Positions 386 to 25,345 are shown, counted from the stretch's first letter. The stretch: DNA of 28,944 nucleotides from a virus (IMGVR_UViG_3300045988_129873:1-28944), one strand, 5' to 3'. The notes: generated by a model from the letters alone, not told the origin. Translations and numbers: made by a program.

Positions 386-1399
386 TTACTCTACTGTGGA
401 CACTGTGTGGACACTCTCGGCTTCAGTACCACCTCTTAGCGGATTAAGAGAAATGGCGTCCTGAAGGTACTCTGGCGCAAAATGAGCGTAAACCATAGTT
501 TGCTCAATCCGCGTGTGACCTAGTATCCGTTGTAGCGTGATAATACTTCCTCCATTAATCATGAAATGAGTGGCAAAGCTGTGCCTTAGTGCATGTGTGG
601 CTTGCCCCGTTGGCAAATCCGGTTTTATTGCTTTCATTGTTCGTCTGAAGCGAGGGTAATCAGCATCAGGGAATAAAAAACCTCGTTTGTTATCCGCGAT
701 CATTTTGGCAACAGCCTCTGAGATCGGGACGGTGCGTGGTTTGTTTGTTTTCGTTTTAACAAACGTGACGCGGTTATGGATGATATTTTCTGCTTTCAAA
801 CGAGCTGCTTCTCCCCAACGTGCTCCTGTACTCAGGCAAAGAATCGCAATCTTTTTGTTGTCGCCGTCAAGTGCTGCAAGCAGTAAGGCAATTTCTTCCT
901 GTGTGAGATAGCCTGTTTCTGGTTTTTCCTCCTTAAGCCTCTTTGTCCCTCTGATAGGGTGCTCACCAAAGAATAACTCCGCTTCAATCAGGGCTGTAAA
1001 CATGCCGCTAATACATGTTAAATCACGATTGATACTCGAAGGTTTAATACCCTGACTTCTTCGGGTGGCGCAGTACTGGCTGATAAGGGATTTCGTGATT
1101 TGAAATGCGCATGGGTCATTCGTTATTTTTGTGAAGATTTCAATTTTTCCAAGATTAGATTTCCCATGCTCTTCGTGTTTACCCTTTAAATCCCACCAGA
1201 TCTGTGTCAGTTCCGACAGACGTCGTTTGTCTGTTGGTTTTGATAGCCATTCTTTATTGTGGTGGTTGTACAACGTGTATTTTTCGAAAGCGACAGCTTC
1301 GCTTTTCTTATCAAACTTCCTACGGATGCGTTTTCCGTTACGTCCAGTAGGGCGGATGTCCACTTCATATCGACCATCATCGAGTTTTTTGATTGCCAT
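386..1399 (-). CDS. int: Tyrosine recombinase / phage integrase (P2 Int-like, 337 aa)
   Basis: The ORF-track entry begins at a TTG. I trimmed it to the ATG at 1399, which is preceded by a GGAGGG SD. The C-terminal HxLRHxxA and catalytic-Tyr region (ATHALRHSFATHF...TMVYAHF) is typical of tyrosine integrases. Position next to att and the C repressor. Confidence 0.93.
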   Translation of the reverse strand: MAIKKLDDGRYEVDIRPTGRNGKRIRRKFDKKSEAVAFEKYTLYNHHNKEWLSKPTDKRRLSELTQIWWDLKGKHEEHGKSNLGKIEIFTKITNDPCAFQITKSLISQYCATRRSQGIKPSSINRDLTCISGMFTALIEAELFFGEHPIRGTKRLKEEKPETGYLTQEEIALLLAALDGDNKKIAILCLSTGARWGEAARLKAENIIHNRVTFVKTKTNKPRTVPISEAVAKMIADNKRGFLFPDADYPRFRRTMKAIKPDLPTGQATHALRHSFATHFMINGGSIITLQRILGHTRIEQTMVYAHFAPEYLQDAISLNPLRGGTEAESVHTVSTVE

Positions 1400-1514
1400 C
1401 AGAAAACCCTCCAAGTGGTACTTTTTTTTGCTACTACTAATCGCTTTTTTCGTGGTGGCTGAAATTTAGCCACCAATAGTAGGCACTTGTGATGAATATA
1501 TTCACGATAAATTG

Positions 1515-3974: not shown

Positions 3975-6240
3975 AGCCTCCGGGCGTTTTGTCCCTCCGT
4001 CAGCATTTGCTGCAGGCACCGGTAAGGCGTTTACCGGTGCTTATGCATGGAACGCGCCACGCGAGGCTGTCGGGCGCGAAAGACCCCTTACACGTGACGA
4101 GATGCGTCAGGTGCAAGGTGTTTTATCCACGATTAACCGCCTGCCTTACTTTTTGCGCTCGCTGTTTACGTCACGCTATGACTACATCCGGCGCAATAAA
4201 AGCCCGGTGCACGGGTTTTATTTCCTCACATCCACTTTTCAGCGTCGTTTATGGCCGCGCATTGAGCGTGTGAATCAGCGCCATGAAATGAACACCGACG
4301 CGTCGATGCTGTTTCTGGCTGAGCGTGACCACTATGCGCGCCTGCCGGGAATGAATGACAAGGAGCTGAAAAAGTTTGCCGCCCGTATCTCATCGCAGCT
4401 TTTCATGATGTATGAGGAACTCAGCGATGCCTGGGTGGATGCGCATGGCGAAAAAGAATCGCTGTTTACGGATGAGGCGCAGGCTCACCTCTATGGTCAT
4501 GTTGCTGGCGCTGCACGTGCTTTCAATATTTCCCCTCTCTACTGGAAAAAATACCGTAAAGGACAGATGACCACGAGGCAGGCATATTCTGCCATTGCCC
4601 GTCTGTTTAACGATGAGTGGTGGATTAGTCAGCTTAAAGGCCAGCGTATGCGCTGGCATGAGGCGTTACTGATTGCTGTCGGGGAGGTCAATAAAGACCG
4701 TTCTCCTTATGCCAGTAAACATGCCATTCGTGATGTGCGTGCACGCCGCCAGGCAAATCTGGAATTTCTTAAATCGTGTGATCTCGAAAACAGGGAAACA
4801 GGCGAGCGCATCGACCTTATCAGTAAGGTGATGGGCAGTATTTCTAATCCTGAAATTCGCCGGATGGAACTGATGAACACCATTGCCGGTATTGAGCGTT
4901 ACGCCGCCGCAGAAGGTGATGTGGGGATGTTTATCACGCTGACCGCGCCGTCAAAGTATCACCCGACACGTCAGGTTGGAAAAGGCGAAAGTAAAACCGT
5001 CCAGCTAAATCACGGCTGGAACGATGAGGCATTTAATCCAAAGGATGCGCAGCGTTATCTCTGCCGTATCTGGAGCCTGATGCGCACGGCATTCAAGGAT
5101 AATGATTTACAGGTCTACGGTTTGCGAGTCGTCGAGCCACACCACGACGGAACGCCGCACTGGCATATGATGCTTTTTTGTAATCCACGCCAGCGTAACC
5201 AGATTATCGAAATCATGCGTCGCTACGCGCTCAAAGAGGATGGCGACGAAAGAGGAGCTGCGCGAAACCGTTTTCAGGCAAAACATCTTAATCGGGGCGG
5301 TGCTGCGGGGTATATCGCGAAATACATCTCAAAAAATATCGACGGCTATGCACTGGATGGGCAGCTCGATAACGATAGCGGCAGACCGCTGAAAGATACT
5401 GCCGCGGCTGTTACCGCATGGGCGTCAACGTGGCGCATTCCGCAATTTAAAACGGTTGGCCTGCCGACAATGGGGGCTTACCGTGAACTACGCAAATTGC
5501 CTCGCGGCGTCAGCATTGCTGATGAGTTTGACGAGCGCGTCGAGGCTGCACGCGCCGCCGCAGACAGTGGTGATTTTGCGCTGTATATCAGCGCGCAGGG
5601 TGGGGCAAATGTCCCGCGCGATTGTCAGACTGTCAGGGTCGCCCGTAGTCCGTCGGATGAAGTTAACGAGTACGAGGAAGAAGTCGAGAGAGTGGTCGGC
5701 ATTTACGCGCCGCATCTCGGCGCGCGTCATATTCATATCACCAGAACGACGGACTGGCGCATTGTTCCGAAAGTGCCGGTCGTTGAGCCTTTGACTTTAA
5801 AAAGCGGCATCGCCGCGCCTCGGAGTCCTGTCAATAACTGTGGAAAGCTCACCGGTGGTGATACTTCGTTACCGGCTCCCACACCTTCTGAGCACGCCGC
5901 AGCAGTGCTTAATCTGGTTGATGACGGTGTTATCGAATGGAATGAGCCGGAGGTCGTGAAGGCGCTCAGGGGCGCATTAAAACACGGGCTGGGAACGCCA
6001 AATCGTCAGCAAAGAAACGGAAGCCCGTTAAAACCGCATGAAATTGCACCATCGGCCAGACTGACCCGGCCGGAACGATTGCAAATCACCCGTATCCGCG
6101 TTGACCTTGCTCAGAACGGTATCAGGCCGCAGCGATGGGAGCTTGAGGCGCTGGCGCGTGGGGCAACCGTAAATTATGACGGGAAAAAATTCACGTATCC
6201 GGTTGCTGATGAGTGGCCGGGGTTCTCGTTACCCATTTGA
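3964..6240 (+). CDS. A: Replication initiation endonuclease A (rolling-circle HUH nickase, P2 gpA-like)
   Basis: Trimmed to the ATG at 3964 (MAVKASGRF...); the track start is a TTG. Contains the HUH-type motif HWHMMLF and the tyrosine-pair region YIAKYISK characteristic of rolling-circle initiators. Confidence 0.92.
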   Translation: MAVKASGRFVPPSAFAAGTGKAFTGAYAWNAPREAVGRERPLTRDEMRQVQGVLSTINRLPYFLRSLFTSRYDYIRRNKSPVHGFYFLTSTFQRRLWPRIERVNQRHEMNTDASMLFLAERDHYARLPGMNDKELKKFAARISSQLFMMYEELSDAWVDAHGEKESLFTDEAQAHLYGHVAGAARAFNISPLYWKKYRKGQMTTRQAYSAIARLFNDEWWISQLKGQRMRWHEALLIAVGEVNKDRSPYASKHAIRDVRARRQANLEFLKSCDLENRETGERIDLISKVMGSISNPEIRRMELMNTIAGIERYAAAEGDVGMFITLTAPSKYHPTRQVGKGESKTVQLNHGWNDEAFNPKDAQRYLCRIWSLMRTAFKDNDLQVYGLRVVEPHHDGTPHWHMMLFCNPRQRNQIIEIMRRYALKEDGDERGAARNRFQAKHLNRGGAAGYIAKYISKNIDGYALDGQLDNDSGRPLKDTAAAVTAWASTWRIPQFKTVGLPTMGAYRELRKLPRGVSIADEFDERVEAARAAADSGDFALYISAQGGANVPRDCQTVRVARSPSDEVNEYEEEVERVVGIYAPHLGARHIHITRTTDWRIVPKVPVVEPLTLKSGIAAPRSPVNNCGKLTGGDTSLPAPTPSEHAAAVLNLVDDGVIEWNEPEVVKALRGALKHGLGTPNRQQRNGSPLKPHEIAPSARLTRPERLQITRIRVDLAQNGIRPQRWELEALARGATVNYDGKKFTYPVADEWPGFSLPI

Positions 6241-6500
6241 GTAAAAACACAACGTGATTTGATATGGCATTGAATGGCTTATGCGGAGCAGTTATGGGGC
6301 AGCAGAAGGTCAATAGCATGCTGAATTAGAAGGCTAAATGCTATTGAGTGACTAGCATGTCGGTAAGGACGGCCGTTTGATCCGGGTCATAAAAGGCCAT
6401 CCATTTAGTCTAATAAAATCATTGCGGGTAACCTTATGTCGACGCATAATTCATCTTGAGCGAAGTCTTGTCAGTCTTTCATCGTATTGATGATGGGCGC

Positions 6501-6531
6501 AAAAAAACCACCCTGGCAGGTGGTTTTTTTG
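6501..6531. terminator. Bidirectional rho-independent terminator (A-tract, 7-bp stem aaccacc/ggtggtt, 6-nt loop, T-tract)
   Basis: aaaaaaaccaccctggcaggtggttttttt read directly. Lies immediately 3' of the minus-strand small ORF and about 260 bp 3' of gene A. Confidence 0.7.
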
Positions 6532-6542
6532 TTTGAAGCATA

Positions 6543-6656
6543 TTAAAGCATAATGCTGACATTGATATTACTGACGTTTACTGACAAACCACTCGGACTA
6601 CCGTTTGGATAGCCAAAGAGGGCCAGAACGAGCATGCAGTAATAGCATTTCTTCAT
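6543..6656 (-). CDS. Candidate small hydrophobic peptide, 37 aa (MKKCYYCMLVLALFGYPNGSPSGLSVNVSNINVSIML)
   Basis: ATG at 6656 is preceded by a perfect AGGAGG SD at 4-nt spacing. The terminator at 6501..6531 follows directly after the stop. The longer 88-aa track ORF has no SD at its upstream starts. Confidence 0.4.
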   Translation of the reverse strand: MKKCYYCMLVLALFGYPNGSPSGLSVNVSNINVSIML

Positions 6657-6801
6657 ATTGCCTCCTGTAAGTAGAGGGCAACTTCCACCGGTATATGCGC
6701 TTCTTAGGTGGAATGACTTTTGAGCGAAGTCTTGCCCTGAAATAATGCTCTGTTTAAACGCAAAGTGATTTGGCATATCACCGAACAGAGAGCCGGAAAA
6801 A

Positions 6802-6849
6802 CACAACATATAGTATGTCGTTGTTTCTAGACATACATTCTATGTTGTG
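6802..6849. promoter_or_regulatory. Imperfect palindrome / hairpin (cacaacatatagtatgtc ... gacatacattctatgttgtg)
   Basis: 9-bp perfect outer arms plus inner 6-7 bp pairing around a 10-nt loop, upstream (minus-strand sense) of the small ORF. Confidence 0.4.
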
Positions 6850-7134
6850 TAACAAGGGCTTTGCATTAAACATGTTTGAGATTTTATTGATGTAGCTCAA
6901 AGTAAAAAACAGAGACTACGGTTGATAAGGTCTTGAAAGCAATGTAAATTTTTTAAAGTTGCCAATTGCTTAAAAATGTACAGTTGCGGTATGGCGTACT
7001 TAAAAAGCTATGCATGCAACAAGTGAATGTTTTTGCATGCGTTGGGGATGTCCGTTCAGGCTGCGTGCGGTCAGGACTGGTGCGGATCCATAGTATCTAT
7101 GCAACTGCATTAAAACCGCCCCGTGAAGCGGGCG

Positions 7135-7153
7135 GGCGAGGCGGGGAAAGCAC
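7135..7153. other. cos: cos site (19-nt cohesive end sequence ggcgaggcggggaaagcac)
   Basis: Matches the P2 cohesive-end sequence as I recall it. It is a GC-rich island in an otherwise AT-rich intergenic region, located between A and Q as expected for a prophage. Confidence 0.7.
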
Positions 7154-7297
7154 TGCGCGCAGCCCGTCAAGAATAAAAAACTCTCTTGCAGGTAGAAAAC
7201 ATTCTGTTAACATTTGTCTGGATGAAGTTTAAGTTAGAAATTTATGTTAATGAACTGATTGATACTTATGTTTTGTCAATAATTTAGGAATGTTAAG

Positions 7298-8434
7298 ATG
7301 ACAAGCTATGTTACATGGGCAAATAAAGGTGGAATAGGTAAATCAACATTATCTTTCCAATTGGCGTTAAAATACGCGAGATTAAACACGAATAAAAAAG
7401 TAATCATAATAGATATGAGCCCTCAGTGTGATGTCTCTAGAATGTTATTGGGGGGAGGGCATTTTAACGGTGAGCAAAAGATCTTGGATAGAATGACCTC
7501 TAATCCAAGGTTGACAATTTACCGGTATCTTGAGGCCTGTGTTAATGATGTTCCTTCTGGGAGGGGATGGCCTGATTCATTATCATACTTAATTGAACCT
7601 AATTCTTTTCGAGACGAAAACGCAGAAAAATTGCCTGATAATATTAGTATGGTCTGTGGAGATTTCGACTTAGAGAGGGTTACTCATAGTTTAGATAATT
7701 TGCCACAACCTCAACCAAGAGGCGGGCGTGTTCCGTCGGGTGCTCATTACTCAGCATATTTATTGCCACGCACTTTTCTACGGAAAATGGTGGAGGACTT
7801 TGAGCGCGAATACAGGGATGTGACAATTTTTATTGATACAGATCCATATTATTCGGTAGTAACAACACATCTGGGGCTTCTGGCTGCAGACAGGTTGATT
7901 TCGGCATACTCTCCTTCATCTCAAGCAAGCCAGTATGCAGTATATCGTAGCTTAGAGTTTCTATACGATCCTAATTATGGACTGGTGCAAGAGGTTAATA
8001 CACAGAGAGCAATATATGGTACCCCTTGGTTTGATAGTTTAAATAATATAATTACAACACCGAATATATCTGTTGCAAATCTTTATATGGTAGTAAGTAA
8101 CATGAATACGCCTCAGGCTGGAAGAGGACAACCTCCATACAGCCAACCCCAAAAACTACATAGACAATCGCAACAAGAAGTTATATCTAGAATTAATGAC
8201 ACATTAAGTAGTTTGGGGATCGCGCATGATTATGTTCATGACTATTTATGGGATCTCAAGAGATTAGGTTTGATTTGTGATTATAATGGTTTTGATTTAG
8301 CAACAATTCAATTAGGGGAAAATTATGCGGAACCAAGTGATGATGGTAATTATTATGTAAATACTACAGGTGGAACACCGATCCAATTATCATCCTATAA
8401 TGCTAGGATCGAAACTGTTACATCAAAACTATAA
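7298..8434 (+). CDS. AT-rich cargo gene: ParA/MinD-like P-loop ATPase (deviant Walker A) with uncharacterised C-terminal half, 378 aa
   Basis: Deviant Walker A KGGIGKST at residues 10-17 (7325..7348), an IIIDMSPQ motif like ParA DxDPQ, and a Walker-B-like TIFIDTDP near residue 175. AGGAA SD 7 nt upstream. Much lower GC than the backbone. Hairpin terminator directly after the stop. No ParB or parS partner seen. Confidence 0.8.
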   Translation: MTSYVTWANKGGIGKSTLSFQLALKYARLNTNKKVIIIDMSPQCDVSRMLLGGGHFNGEQKILDRMTSNPRLTIYRYLEACVNDVPSGRGWPDSLSYLIEPNSFRDENAEKLPDNISMVCGDFDLERVTHSLDNLPQPQPRGGRVPSGAHYSAYLLPRTFLRKMVEDFEREYRDVTIFIDTDPYYSVVTTHLGLLAADRLISAYSPSSQASQYAVYRSLEFLYDPNYGLVQEVNTQRAIYGTPWFDSLNNIITTPNISVANLYMVVSNMNTPQAGRGQPPYSQPQKLHRQSQQEVISRINDTLSSLGIAHDYVHDYLWDLKRLGLICDYNGFDLATIQLGENYAEPSDDGNYYVNTTGGTPIQLSSYNARIETVTSKL

Positions 8435-8440
8435 GAACTA

Positions 8441-8460
8441 GGGGAGCAAATGCTCCCTTT
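8441..8460. terminator. Hairpin gggagc-aaat-gctccc followed by a T-rich run; convergent terminator between the cargo ATPase and Q
   Basis: Read directly from the sequence; 6-bp GC-rich stem, 4-nt loop, TTT after. Confidence 0.55.
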
Positions 8461-8506
8461 CTATATATGGGTTATTAATTACCCGCTTATATAAATATTG
8501 AAGAAA

Positions 8507-9526
8507 CTATAGGGTGTATTGTCTGAATTTTATTACATTCTGACCGAGCCAGCCGTTTATTTCCCGAATCCTGTCCTGTAACGGGATAAGCTCATTGCGG
8601 ACAAAGACCTTTGCCACTTTCTCAATATCACCCAGCGACCCGACGTTCTCCGGCTTGCCACCCATCAACTGAAAGGGGATGCGGTGTGCGTCCAGCAGGT
8701 CAGCGGCGCTGGCTTTTTTGATATTAAAAAAATCATCCTTCGTTGCCACTTCACTGAGCGGGATAATTTTAATGCCGTCGGCTTTCCCTTGTGGGGCATA
8801 GAGGAACAGGTTTTTAAAGTTGTTGCGGCCTTTCGACTTCACCATGTTTTCGCGGAGCATTTCGATATCGTTGCGATCCTGCACGGCATCGGTGACGTAC
8901 ATGATGTATCCGGCATGTGCGCCGTTTTCGTAATACTTGCGGCGGAACAGCGTGGCCGACTCATTCAGCCAGGCAGAATTAAGGGCGCTCAGATATTCCG
9001 GCAGGCCGTACAGCTCCTGATTGATATCCGGCTCCAGCAGGTGAAACACGGAGCCGGGCGTGAAGGCTGTCGGCTCGTTGAAGGACGGCACCCACCAGTA
9101 AACATCCTCCTCCACGCCACGGCGGGTATATTTTGCCGGTGAGGTTTCCAGTCTGATGACCTTACCGGTGGTGCTGTAACGCTTTTCCAGAAACGCATTA
9201 CCGAACACCAGAAAATCCAGCACAAAGCGGCTGAAATCCTGCTGGGAAAGCCACGGATGCGGGATAAATGTCGAGGCCAGAATATTGCGTTTGACGTAAA
9301 TCGGTGAGCTGTGATGCACGGCAGCACGCAGGCTTTTTGCCAGACCGGTAAAGCTGACCGGTGGCTCATACCATCTGCCGTTACTGATGCACTCGACGTA
9401 ATCCAGAATGTCACGGCGGTCGAGTACCGGCACCGGCTCACCAAAGGTGAATGCCTCCATTTTCGGGGCGCTGGCGGTCATTTTTTTTGCCGCAGGTTGC
9501 GGTGTTTTCCCTTTTTTCTTGCTCAT
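8507..9526 (-). CDS. Q: Portal protein Q (P2 gpQ-like)
   Basis: 339 aa. Start ATG overlaps the P stop (ATGA). Order Q-P divergent from O-N-M-L as in P2. Confidence 0.92.
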   Translation of the reverse strand: MSKKKGKTPQPAAKKMTASAPKMEAFTFGEPVPVLDRRDILDYVECISNGRWYEPPVSFTGLAKSLRAAVHHSSPIYVKRNILASTFIPHPWLSQQDFSRFVLDFLVFGNAFLEKRYSTTGKVIRLETSPAKYTRRGVEEDVYWWVPSFNEPTAFTPGSVFHLLEPDINQELYGLPEYLSALNSAWLNESATLFRRKYYENGAHAGYIMYVTDAVQDRNDIEMLRENMVKSKGRNNFKNLFLYAPQGKADGIKIIPLSEVATKDDFFNIKKASAADLLDAHRIPFQLMGGKPENVGSLGDIEKVAKVFVRNELIPLQDRIREINGWLGQNVIKFRQYTL

Positions 9527-23182: not shown

Positions 23183-25345
23183 TTAGTTCTTTATTTTTGC
23201 CATTTTTTTATAATGTGCAGAATAACCTGTGTGCTCAAACACTAATCTAAGCCCCTCTTTGAAATCATTATAGTTAAATTCCTTGAAGTCAAAAATGTTC
23301 TGTCCTAATGAGTGTGACTCTCTGTTTATGTAACGAATAAAGGATTGAAATCGTGGTTTTTTTAACTCTGGTTTTTGAGTGACATTGCTTAAATCTGCTT
23401 TTTGTACAAAATTGAAAAAGTATTCAATTATATTTCTCATGCAGTTAGCAATTAAGGCAGGAGGCTGTTTGTCATCATTGATTACTGACCAATAAGACTG
23501 GTAGTCATTTTGTATTTCATCGTATTTCATTAAGATAATTGAACTGCCGTTGGAGTTTTTAGAAAGCCTAAATAAATTTTGATTTTCTTTTCTTCTTTCA
23601 TGGTTTGCATCAGCGAGTTCATAGAAAAAATATAAGCTGTGAGATAAAACAAATATCTGCTCTATTTCATTAGAGTTAAAGAAATCATTTTTTATTAGTT
23701 GGCCTATATTGTAGACAAAAATATGTGATAAGCTTGATACAGGATCATCGATTATAGCTATTTTTTTGGTTTTACCCTCGGTGGCGACTCTTTTACCTCT
23801 GAATAGTTCTCTAAAATACAAAAGGCTGATAATCATTTTTTCGCCTTCACTTAATGATGAGAATACTTTAGAATTAGAGTCATTACGTACTATGCGATAA
23901 AGAGTATCCTCATATTTTGCGATGTGAAAATCTGTGATTCCGATGTCATTTAAACCTTGGTTTATGTTGAATACGGCATCATCTATATTTACTGTTGATT
24001 TCTGATATTCAATCCGTTCTGCATCTTTAGTCTTTATTTTTGCTTCTTTTTCATCTTTGGCGGTGTTTTTTCTGATTATTATAATGTTTGCACTTTCTTT
24101 TATTTCGTTGAAATTTAAAATTGTTTGATCATACTCATACCTTAAGAACTGCCAGAAAGAAATTTTTATTTTTTCTAGCTCGTGTTTTGCATTGTCTATT
24201 TTTGAGTTATGTGTGGTTATTTCATTGTTCACTAATTTCACTAATGAATTGAAGTTATCAACAGAGTTGGATATATCATTCAGCGTTACTGGGGTACTGG
24301 GGTTTGTTACCTTCTGCTTTATTAGTTCCAAGTTGCTCTCTGTATCTTTTCTTAACAGGGCGTAACAGTCGCTTAATTGAACTATATAATTTGAAGATAG
24401 TTTGCATTCTTTATAAGTATCCAGTGAAGGAATACTGTCAATCAATGAGTTATATTTGGTCTGAATGGATTTTATTTTTTTTACACTATCTTGATACGTT
24501 TCATCGAAATAGTTGCGAATATGCTGAACCAAGTTTTCAGTTATAATTTGAGATTGACAAAATGGACACTGAGAATCTCCTGTTTGTTCTAAGTATTTTA
24601 GTCCTTCATTTACCCAATCAGAGTTCTGAAGCTTACTTATAAGATATGAAACGGGACTATCTGTACTTCCCACAATTATATTCTGAAGTAATTCCACTTC
24701 ATCGAGTGATAATACGATGGTGTGAATCTCCTCTAGCATGCTGTATTTTATTGCTGTTTCGCCATCAATCGCACTTGCTTCTTCTTTTAAGTCAGAGATG
24801 TTTTTTGATGGCTTAGAATTAGGTAAAGGAATGGAGCAAAGATGGTTGAATAATGATTCTTTACTTCCCATTTTTCCTAATAAACAAAATTCAAGGACCC
24901 TGTCACCACCTGAATAGTTGGTTTTTATTTCCCATGTTTTATTTTGAGCTTTGTTTTTTGCATCAGAAACAGAGGTGTTTTGTGCTGTTATTTCTTTTTC
25001 AATTTCACGTTTTTCATCAGATAGTTTTATTATTTCTAATGTGAGGCTCTCAACCTTTTCTTTTGCTTCTTTATTTTCCTTGGACAAGCTAAATATTCCA
25101 TTTAAAGAATCCTTTGCATAAAAGTTATCCTGAATGAATTTCTGATTGTAGACAAGGATTTCATCATACTCACCTGAGTGGGAACAATTCTCATATTTTT
25201 TATTATCTATGTCATAGAAATAATTGGAGAAGGTGCTTTTACCTGTTCCATTTAAACCATAAATAATATTTACTTTTTTATCAGTATTTAACTCTGATTT
25301 TGACTTATAACTTGCAACTTTATTTAGAACTATATTGTTTATCAT
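23183..25345 (-). CDS. AT-rich cargo gene at the Z/fun position: ABC/SMC-type ATPase with coiled-coil, CxxC hook-like motif and C-terminal HEPN-like R-x6-H; candidate RloC/PrrC-like defence nuclease, 720 aa
   Basis: Walker A GLNGTGKST at residues 30-38 (25232..25258). Charged coiled-coil stretches around residues 85-135 and 370-450. SQCPFCQ at residues 257-263 (about 24557..24577). ABC-signature-like SLSEGEK at 497-503. Walker B KKIAIIDDP at 527-535 (23741..23767). H-loop-like VLSHS at about 566-570. RYINRESH at 671-678 (23312..23335). About 25-30% GC in sampled stretches. Confidence 0.8.
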   Translation of the reverse strand: MINNIVLNKVASYKSKSELNTDKKVNIIYGLNGTGKSTFSNYFYDIDNKKYENCSHSGEYDEILVYNQKFIQDNFYAKDSLNGIFSLSKENKEAKEKVESLTLEIIKLSDEKREIEKEITAQNTSVSDAKNKAQNKTWEIKTNYSGGDRVLEFCLLGKMGSKESLFNHLCSIPLPNSKPSKNISDLKEEASAIDGETAIKYSMLEEIHTIVLSLDEVELLQNIIVGSTDSPVSYLISKLQNSDWVNEGLKYLEQTGDSQCPFCQSQIITENLVQHIRNYFDETYQDSVKKIKSIQTKYNSLIDSIPSLDTYKECKLSSNYIVQLSDCYALLRKDTESNLELIKQKVTNPSTPVTLNDISNSVDNFNSLVKLVNNEITTHNSKIDNAKHELEKIKISFWQFLRYEYDQTILNFNEIKESANIIIIRKNTAKDEKEAKIKTKDAERIEYQKSTVNIDDAVFNINQGLNDIGITDFHIAKYEDTLYRIVRNDSNSKVFSSLSEGEKMIISLLYFRELFRGKRVATEGKTKKIAIIDDPVSSLSHIFVYNIGQLIKNDFFNSNEIEQIFVLSHSLYFFYELADANHERRKENQNLFRLSKNSNGSSIILMKYDEIQNDYQSYWSVINDDKQPPALIANCMRNIIEYFFNFVQKADLSNVTQKPELKKPRFQSFIRYINRESHSLGQNIFDFKEFNYNDFKEGLRLVFEHTGYSAHYKKMAKIKN

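Follow-up and report, generated by a model that had tools for sequence, protein, structure and literature searches.

The gene analysed here lies in a window of 28,944 nucleotides of viral DNA (IMGVR_UViG_3300045988_129873), between the cos site and the portal gene Q of a P2-like prophage (Table 1). An earlier note, made from the sequence of the window, had described it as a stand-alone, probably non-partition ATPase gene of the ParA/MinD type, oriented convergently with Q in an integrative phage and equipped with its own Shine-Dalgarno sequence and hairpin. The open reading frame (ORF), its coordinates, orientation and neighbours were all recovered as described, with the AGGA Shine-Dalgarno sequence placed 8 nt ahead of the ATG and an integrase gene elsewhere in the window. 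In the annotation of reference P2, the 19-mer bounding the locus on the left is cosL/cosR.

Table 1 Features of the cos-Q locus and related elements in the window.
Feature	Coordinates	Strand	Remarks
Integrase	386..1414		Present in window
P2 cos cohesive end GGCGAGGCGGGGAAAGCAC	7135..7153	+	19-nt exact single match; left edge of locus
Cargo cassette	7161..8539	.	Takes the place of ~210 bp at the cos-Q junction of empty prophages
AT-rich leader	7161..7297	+	AGGA Shine-Dalgarno at 7286-7289
ParA-type ATPase gene	7298..8434	+	SIMIBI, deviant Walker A; 378 aa; fold predicted throughout
8-bp hairpin AGGGGAGC/GCUCCCUU, loop AAAU	8440..8459	.	T-rich runs flank it on both strands
Portal gene Q	8507..9526	-	Pfam Phage_portal; 339 aa; convergent neighbour

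The edges of the cassette carrying this gene were defined by BLASTN against an empty P2-like prophage (L002), which matched the surroundings at 6200-7160 and 8540-8700 only; the prophage of Escherichia coli NC22 (L001) matched the window over 7091-8700. The left edge falls directly after the cos core common to P2 and P4 and the right edge is within Q, where the final 11 codons have been replaced. The ORF has a GC content of 38.2% (37.3% for 7154-8506), as compared with 52-57% for the flanking P2 genes, so that the low GC content claimed in the earlier note was confirmed but not its figure of 33%. Q is not part of the ParA-like system, and its 3' end has been remodelled by the cassette: it encodes 339 amino acids here versus 344 in P2 and in the empty prophage, with an altered 3' end at 8507-8539. 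The final 11 codons read differently in empty prophages, and replacement of the portal C-terminus through cargo exchange is evidently tolerated.

In reference P2, orf91, tin and old are found between A and cosR, and the cosL-Q interval measures 167 bp and contains only the tQ terminator. The ParA-like gene therefore sits on the Q side of cos, opposite to the exclusion genes old and tin on the A side; the earlier note had correctly recognised the cos-proximal hotspot but had assigned the gene to the old/tin locus. Both sides of cos are filled in NC22, with an ImmA/IrrE gene and a hypothetical gene on the A side and the ParA-like gene on the Q side, and a Serratia P4-like satellite exhibits the same order, cos and then the gene. 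The NC22 pair on the old/tin side (L001 4269-5909) encodes an ImmA/IrrE protein (Peptidase_M78), the peptidase domain of which has weak PADLOC matches to RmrA, capP and PD-Lambda-2_B, and a 213-aa hypothetical protein. In the window, the backbone spacer between A and cos, common to empty P2-like prophages, contains an exact 15-nt direct repeat TTGAGCGAAGTCTTG (6456-6470 and 6720-6734, 264 bp apart), a perfect 13-bp inverted-repeat terminator (6500-6531) and a small ORF (6543-6809, minus strand) that matches no Pfam family and has an internal MKKCYYCMLVLALFG start resembling a signal peptide or lipoprotein.

Upstream of the gene, a consensus promoter scan of 7154-7297 retrieved no site scoring at least 9/12, the best candidate read by hand for sigma-70 being TTAACA (7207-7212)-17-TAAGTT, with 8/12. 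We also considered a promoter or leader common to the P2 and P4 copies and rejected it, as similarity was limited to the ORF and the cos core. The hairpin downstream folds at -16.7 kcal/mol (z = -3.5) and likely serves as a bidirectional terminator for the ParA-like gene and the convergent P-Q operon, replacing tQ of P2. The P4 copies each have their own unrelated hairpin 3' of the stop codon.

The motifs listed in the earlier note are real and, in an alignment of 52 full-length homologs, invariant: the deviant Walker A KGGIGKST (residues 10-17, with K10 and K15), IIIDMSPQ (residues 36-43), which contains the switch I aspartate D39 after beta-2, and IFIDTDP (residues 177-183; listed earlier as TIFIDTDP), corresponding to the Walker B/switch II D180-T-D-P183. 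Strand beta-6 carries a conserved asparagine, N268. The signature lysine of this superfamily contacts the partner subunit across the ATP-sandwich dimer. All the nucleotide-binding and switch motifs, this lysine included, are intact, and the ATPase is apparently complete and catalytically competent, judging from its sequence.

Pfam AAA_31 (E 4e-10) and CbiA scored above their gathering thresholds over residues 8-206, and the match to PHROG 164 ('ParA-like partition protein') covered residues 1-208. Sequence methods reached solved ParA/NifH proteins over the first 50-85 residues only, which explains the impression conveyed by the earlier note of an unknown C-terminal domain. The structural comparison that it had proposed did not bear this out. 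Foldseek alignments based on a confident structure model extended over 375-384 columns (target-normalised TM 0.72-0.77), well beyond the 208-residue N-terminal half, so that the C-terminal half, rich in Q, P, Y and N, corresponds to the second half of a ParA fold. A single seven-stranded fold of the ParA/MinD type, closest to ParA/Soj/McdA, is thus predicted to span the full protein. The closest structural matches were partition ParAs and McdA, with further neighbours including pNOB8 ParA, delta of pSM19035, ParA2, MinD, FleN and NifH, as well as FlhG and MipZ; the BFVD viral structure library provided one weak ParA match only. Family-specific insertions, ~120 residues in sum, are located near residues 85-115, 134-155, 224-260, 271-285 and 331-359. 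No nuclease, toxin, transmembrane or DNA-binding domain has been added to the 378-aa protein. It also lacks the C-terminal amphipathic membrane-targeting helix of MinD, its C-terminus (...RIETVTSKL) being the packed terminal helix of the predicted fold. A long ParA-like protein of known structure, the actinobacterial DIP2308 from Corynebacterium diphtheriae (PDB 3pg5), shares ~15% identity with it.

The homologs, ~50% identical and uniformly 377-378 aa long, come from Enterobacterales, Vibrio, Pseudomonas, Burkholderia, an alphaproteobacterium and myxobacteria. Around 80 positions are invariant across Gamma-, Beta- and Alphaproteobacteria and Myxococcota, including the family-specific motifs SPQCD, CGDFDLER, YSPSSQASQYA and RRLGLICDYNG. 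The cassette was detected in two of 5426 complete E. coli genomes, with no diverged DNA-level copies in E. coli besides those two, and its 90%-identity cluster occurs on several hundred draft E. coli contigs. More widely, the family was found in six of 100,044 species-representative genomes and on two IMG/VR contigs. When 1.84 billion representatives at 50% identity were scanned exhaustively, a single full-length cluster emerged, at 606 bits, below which scores fall to 134 bits in a halo of 'long ParA-like' proteins of 340-375 aa (at least 272 clusters, counted at E ≤1e-10). Longer relatives (450-700 aa) were inspected for domain fusions as a functional clue, an idea that we rejected because they carry no additional Pfam domain.

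The family is rare, patchily distributed and under strong purifying selection. Comparison with the Serratia and Klebsiella orthologs gave dN values of 0.10-0.18 with saturated dS, so that dN/dS was not computable for most pairs; where it was, it amounted to 0.085 for the C-terminal half and 0.15 for the N-terminal half, indicating purifying selection on both. Two homologs appear to be decaying copies: that of Enterobacter ludwigii (L028 8144-9136), an ORF of 330 aa without a proper 5' end, and that of a gammaproteobacterial MAG (L029 8001-9135), split into two ORFs. These two copies and the great rarity of the gene are what might be expected of functionless hitch-hiking or decaying DNA, an explanation that we find hardly credible given the constant protein length, the invariant positions in four taxa, dN/dS of at most ~0.15 and the confident structure model.

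The genomic contexts of the homologs are varied. In Klebsiella the gene occupies a P4-satellite hotspot between delta and the integrase, just past a DUF8370 gene located 28 bp upstream, and in the P4 hotspot of Serratia it is alone. In Pseudomonas aeruginosa it belongs to a small integrase/resolvase islet beside ligA, in Burkholderia pseudomallei it adjoins a resolvase and an AbiE pair, and in Cronobacter it is part of a resolvase island, with CBASS close by in one case. A high-GC P2-like phage from IMG/VR (L024 7223-9956) carries a 51%-identical homolog at another insertion site, of the orf30 moron type, flanked by the tail-completion gene S on one side and the baseplate genes V/W/J on the other; there the ORF is 19.5 GC points under its flanks. 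In 10 of 13 loci, the ORF has a GC content 10-20 points lower than its flanks. The gene is stand-alone accessory cargo of prophages and other mobile genetic elements and is not confined to the cos hotspot; in the P2-like prophage it constitutes an autonomous accessory ('moron') cassette. Some defence-type genes (reverse transcriptase, PD-T4-6-like kinases and others) were also present next to the most distant homologs, with modest enrichment. A serine recombinase (resolvase) of ~185-190 aa was observed 0.1-1.7 kb from the homolog in three unrelated lineages, at Pseudomonas, Burkholderia and Cronobacter loci (L003, L012-L017). A 2025 preprint proposed serine recombinases as markers of defence loci, with ParA-type genes unmentioned (PMC12632615).

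An all-versus-all BLASTP comparison of the neighbours at 17 loci led us to reject the existence of a conserved partner gene, as only resolvases (in three lineages) and integrases recurred. No ParB or adaptor gene was detected at any of the 17 loci and, around the gene in the window (6240-8560), we found no iterons or parS-like centromere repeats, only two-copy repeats at chance level. These results bear on the possibility that the protein is an orphan partition or maintenance ATPase for an excised element, such as the plasmid state of P4, with its adaptor and DNA site encoded elsewhere. Its top structural matches, partition ParAs and McdA, its PHROG annotation and the frequency of StbA/StbB partition modules in P2 hotspots agree with such a role. 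Nevertheless, it differs from partition ParA/Soj/McdA proteins (type Ib; PDB 8ray, 6noo, 2bek, 5u1j, 2oze) by the ~120 extra residues in five insertions and by the lack of a ParB/McdB-type partner and of a centromere, and it fails the NCBIfam ParA_partition equivalog model, with 26 bits against a cut-off of 180 and residues 9-45 alone matched. Moreover, the gene is found in integrative P2 and in chromosomal islets, and a homologous protein from an integrated Gifsy prophage, GiPD474 (see below), gives phage resistance. A partition function consequently appears quite improbable, in agreement with the earlier note.

Whether the protein might be one component of a multi-gene system, inactive alone in this prophage, was considered for two sets of neighbours, the ImmA/IrrE gene with its hypothetical companion and DUF8370. 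The DUF8370 protein (477 aa) matches the PADLOC candidate PDC-M36A (E 1.5e-46), and its loci are L008 6540-7973, L022 5001-6434 and L021 5001-6434; it stands alone in an E. coli P4 hotspot and beside an HTH gene in another island. We rejected DUF8370/PDC-M36A as an obligate partner because it and the ParA-like gene each stand alone in P4 hotspots, the solitary DUF8370 of E. coli indicating that the two are independent modules. The close linkage of both genes in the Klebsiella P4 element would fit a multi-gene system, as would other P2 loci, where ParA-type genes are paired with RelA_SpoT or DUF5855, as reported by Rousset et al. (PMC9122126). These authors also gave the ImmA/IrrE gene, the hypothetical gene and the ParA-like gene of the NC22 type as one three-gene locus, despite the cos between them (PMC9122126). 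However, in NC22 the ImmA pair and the gene lie on opposite sides of cos, the gene has only cos and the portal gene as neighbours in this window and is likewise alone in the Serratia P4, no neighbour family is common to different lineages, and the summary table of the same study contains it as a single-gene system. We accordingly regard the multi-gene explanation as very improbable.

The single-gene entry in question is system #160, 'AAA_31/CbiA' (n=11), among the P2-hotspot systems of Table S5B of Rousset et al. (2022), and the protein itself (WP_074400489) is included in their table of P2 hotspot loci (PMC9122126). The gene had thus been noticed before, contrary to what the earlier note implied, although system #160 is absent from their table of cloned and tested systems (PMC9122126). 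About one-third of the hotspot systems cloned in that study were active, partition systems and toxins also occurred in the hotspots, and P2 hotspots often held StbA/StbB modules (PMC9122126). P4 hotspots in addition hold pairs of the 'hypothetical + AAA_31' type (Table S5B, PMC9122126). ATPases of the ParA type may be a module from which hotspot cargo is repeatedly assembled. The term 'ParA' does not occur in the main text of Rousset et al. 2022, of a 2026 P2/P4 preprint, of the serine-recombinase paper or of the domain-centric discovery paper. In PADLOC-DB 2.0.0 the protein had no significant match to a defence model, only a P-loop-level match to PDC-M28B (E 0.064).

The best matches in the phage database were ParA-like genes situated just 3' of cI-type repressors. 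A search started from one of these cI-proximal genes retrieved a cluster (P0114) of 361-aa proteins with members in Salmonella Typhimurium and E. coli and the motif GGVGKT at residues 29-34. This cluster matches the family of GiPD474 by its published description, WP_000368620.1 not being among the members listed. GiPD474 (WP_000368620.1), reported by Bosma, Noireaux & Bowden (AEM, November 2025), is a 361-aa single gene product from the immunity region of Gifsy-1 in S. Typhimurium 4/74, with an AAA_31/ParA-MinD-Soj-like fold (PMC12724215). It decreases plating of T4 and Alf5 by ~5 logs and also restricts Felix O1, with T7, SP6, S16 and others unaffected; it is active in both Salmonella and E. 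coli K-12, and its authors infer a block after adsorption (PMC12724215). GiPD474 was named in one paper only in our literature search. A single-gene prophage defence based on a ParA-like protein is therefore a known kind, only since late 2025, and the statement of the earlier note that none had been described no longer applies.

Profile comparison with hhalign showed that the ParA-like family (A1) and the GiPD474 family (A2) are homologous over their full length (99.95% probability, E 9e-38, 339 columns), residues 1-378 of the former aligning to residues 16-361 of GiPD474 with ~25% identity. BLASTP with a Klebsiella phage member of the GiPD474 family gave 27% identity over 306 aa (E 2e-23). 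Both families have in common the P-loop lysines, D39, PQ...S..LGG, P113/N115, GDxDL, R158, D180/P183, R217, N268 and the positions of the insertions, but neither the insertion sequences nor the invariant cysteines agree. The cysteines do not align, which led us to reject a common conserved cysteine or metal site. In size (378 versus 361 aa), deviant Walker A and a ParA/MinD/Soj fold extending nearly throughout, the two proteins are alike, and both are encoded by single-gene prophage cargo without partner, are annotated merely as 'ParA family protein' and have no match in PADLOC 2.0. The GiPD474 authors counted as homologs proteins with at least 70% identity and 70% coverage (PMC12724215). Our protein falls below this threshold and, given the ~25% identity and its separate 50%-identity cluster, its family is a sister of GiPD474 and not an ortholog. 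It is far rarer (96 versus >2200 90%-identity clusters) and occupies other niches: the cos-Q junction of P2, P4 hotspots and resolvase islets, instead of the cI-proximal immunity region of lambdoid prophages. It represents a new, distinct branch that had already been catalogued.

These observations make a defence role the best reading, since the gene is low-GC cargo of a P2 hotspot with homologs in P4 hotspots and defence-rich islets. Given its remote homology to GiPD474 from end to end, it probably functions in phage exclusion, with expression in the lysogen. GiPD474 protects a heterologous host on its own, which favours this reading, as does the defence candidate at the second hotspot of the same prophage. 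That candidate is a 720-aa AAA_13 ATPase (23183-25345, minus strand), encoded in a second low-GC island (~31% GC) between the tail-fibre assembly gene G and the sheath gene FI, at the place known in P2 as the classical Z/fun hotspot; among PADLOC single-gene candidates it matches PDC-S06 (E ~1e-254), and both hotspots of the prophage thus hold candidate defence cargo. The ParA-like gene resembles old, tin and fun(Z) of P2 in being low-GC, non-essential lysogenic-conversion cargo of variable loci beside cos, for which expression in the lysogen is expected, and the T-even phages are a class blocked by tin and GiPD474 alike. Nonetheless, it has no sequence or fold relationship with the P2 exclusion genes, Old being an ABC-type ATPase plus a Toprim nuclease.

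The ParA/MinD fold is also used by regulators, such as Soj acting on DnaA, FleN on FleQ and MinD on division. The gene might accordingly have another lysogenic-conversion or conflict function, modulating host replication, division or transcription, or intervening in the conflict between P2 helpers and P4 satellites. The presence of the regulators FleN, FlhG, MinD and MipZ among its structural neighbours, its occurrence in P2 and P4, which are mutually antagonistic, and the anti-phage activity of only about one-third of the hotspot systems in the screen of Rousset et al. (PMC9122126) are all compatible with this idea. Yet it is carried by Pseudomonas, Burkholderia and myxobacterial islets without P2 or P4; the sole experimentally studied homolog is anti-phage and works in a heterologous host; the protein scores far under the cut-offs of NCBIfam MinD/FleN-type models (12.9 bits versus 212.9 for minD_bact, TIGR01968); and the amphipathic tail of MinD is missing. 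A regulatory or conflict function seems unlikely in view of these points.

If the gene does act in phage exclusion, the protein would be made in the lysogen and cycle between a monomer and an ATP-bound dimer, presumably an ATP-sandwich as in other deviant-Walker-A ATPases, as the conserved signature lysine suggests. The ~120 residues of conserved insertions would form a family-specific surface on this dimer and recognise a phage component, either DNA or a protein acting early, in replication or in packaging. Since nuclease, toxin and membrane domains are all absent, the ATPase itself would be the effector and would block a step after adsorption by binding or sequestering its target in an ATP-dependent manner, not by destroying it enzymatically. 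We hold these mechanistic details (dimerisation, target binding, no host-encoded effector) with much less confidence than the defence role itself. The function could also differ from that of GiPD474, in view of the ~25% identity and the sharp separation of the cluster, with scores dropping from 606 to 134 bits. More tentatively still, one might imagine that this family and GiPD474 together embody an effector-less immunity, in which an ATP-locked dimer captures or mislocalises phage DNA or a replication or packaging protein on the nucleoid, and that the long ParA-like halo represents a large unrecognised defence superfamily, a rather doubtful scenario. If true, defence would operate through spatial sequestration instead of nuclease, NADase, membrane or signalling effectors.

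The Q side of the P2 cos, a mere 167 bp in P2, is able to carry cargo, with an edge exactly where the cos core shared by P2 and P4 ends. Among the defence hotspots on mobile elements of E. coli, the P2 cos region and the P4 hotspot are the best validated, and the family is located in both. If active, it would add a compact defence gene of 1.1 kb, improve the annotation of prophage 'ParA family protein' genes and raise the question of how a positioning ATPase devoid of an effector domain stops a phage. Having the architecture of the GiPD474 family but being deeply diverged from it, the family offers a basis of comparison for single-gene ParA-type defence: residues conserved in both would delimit the common engine, with the divergent insertions as candidate determinants of specificity.
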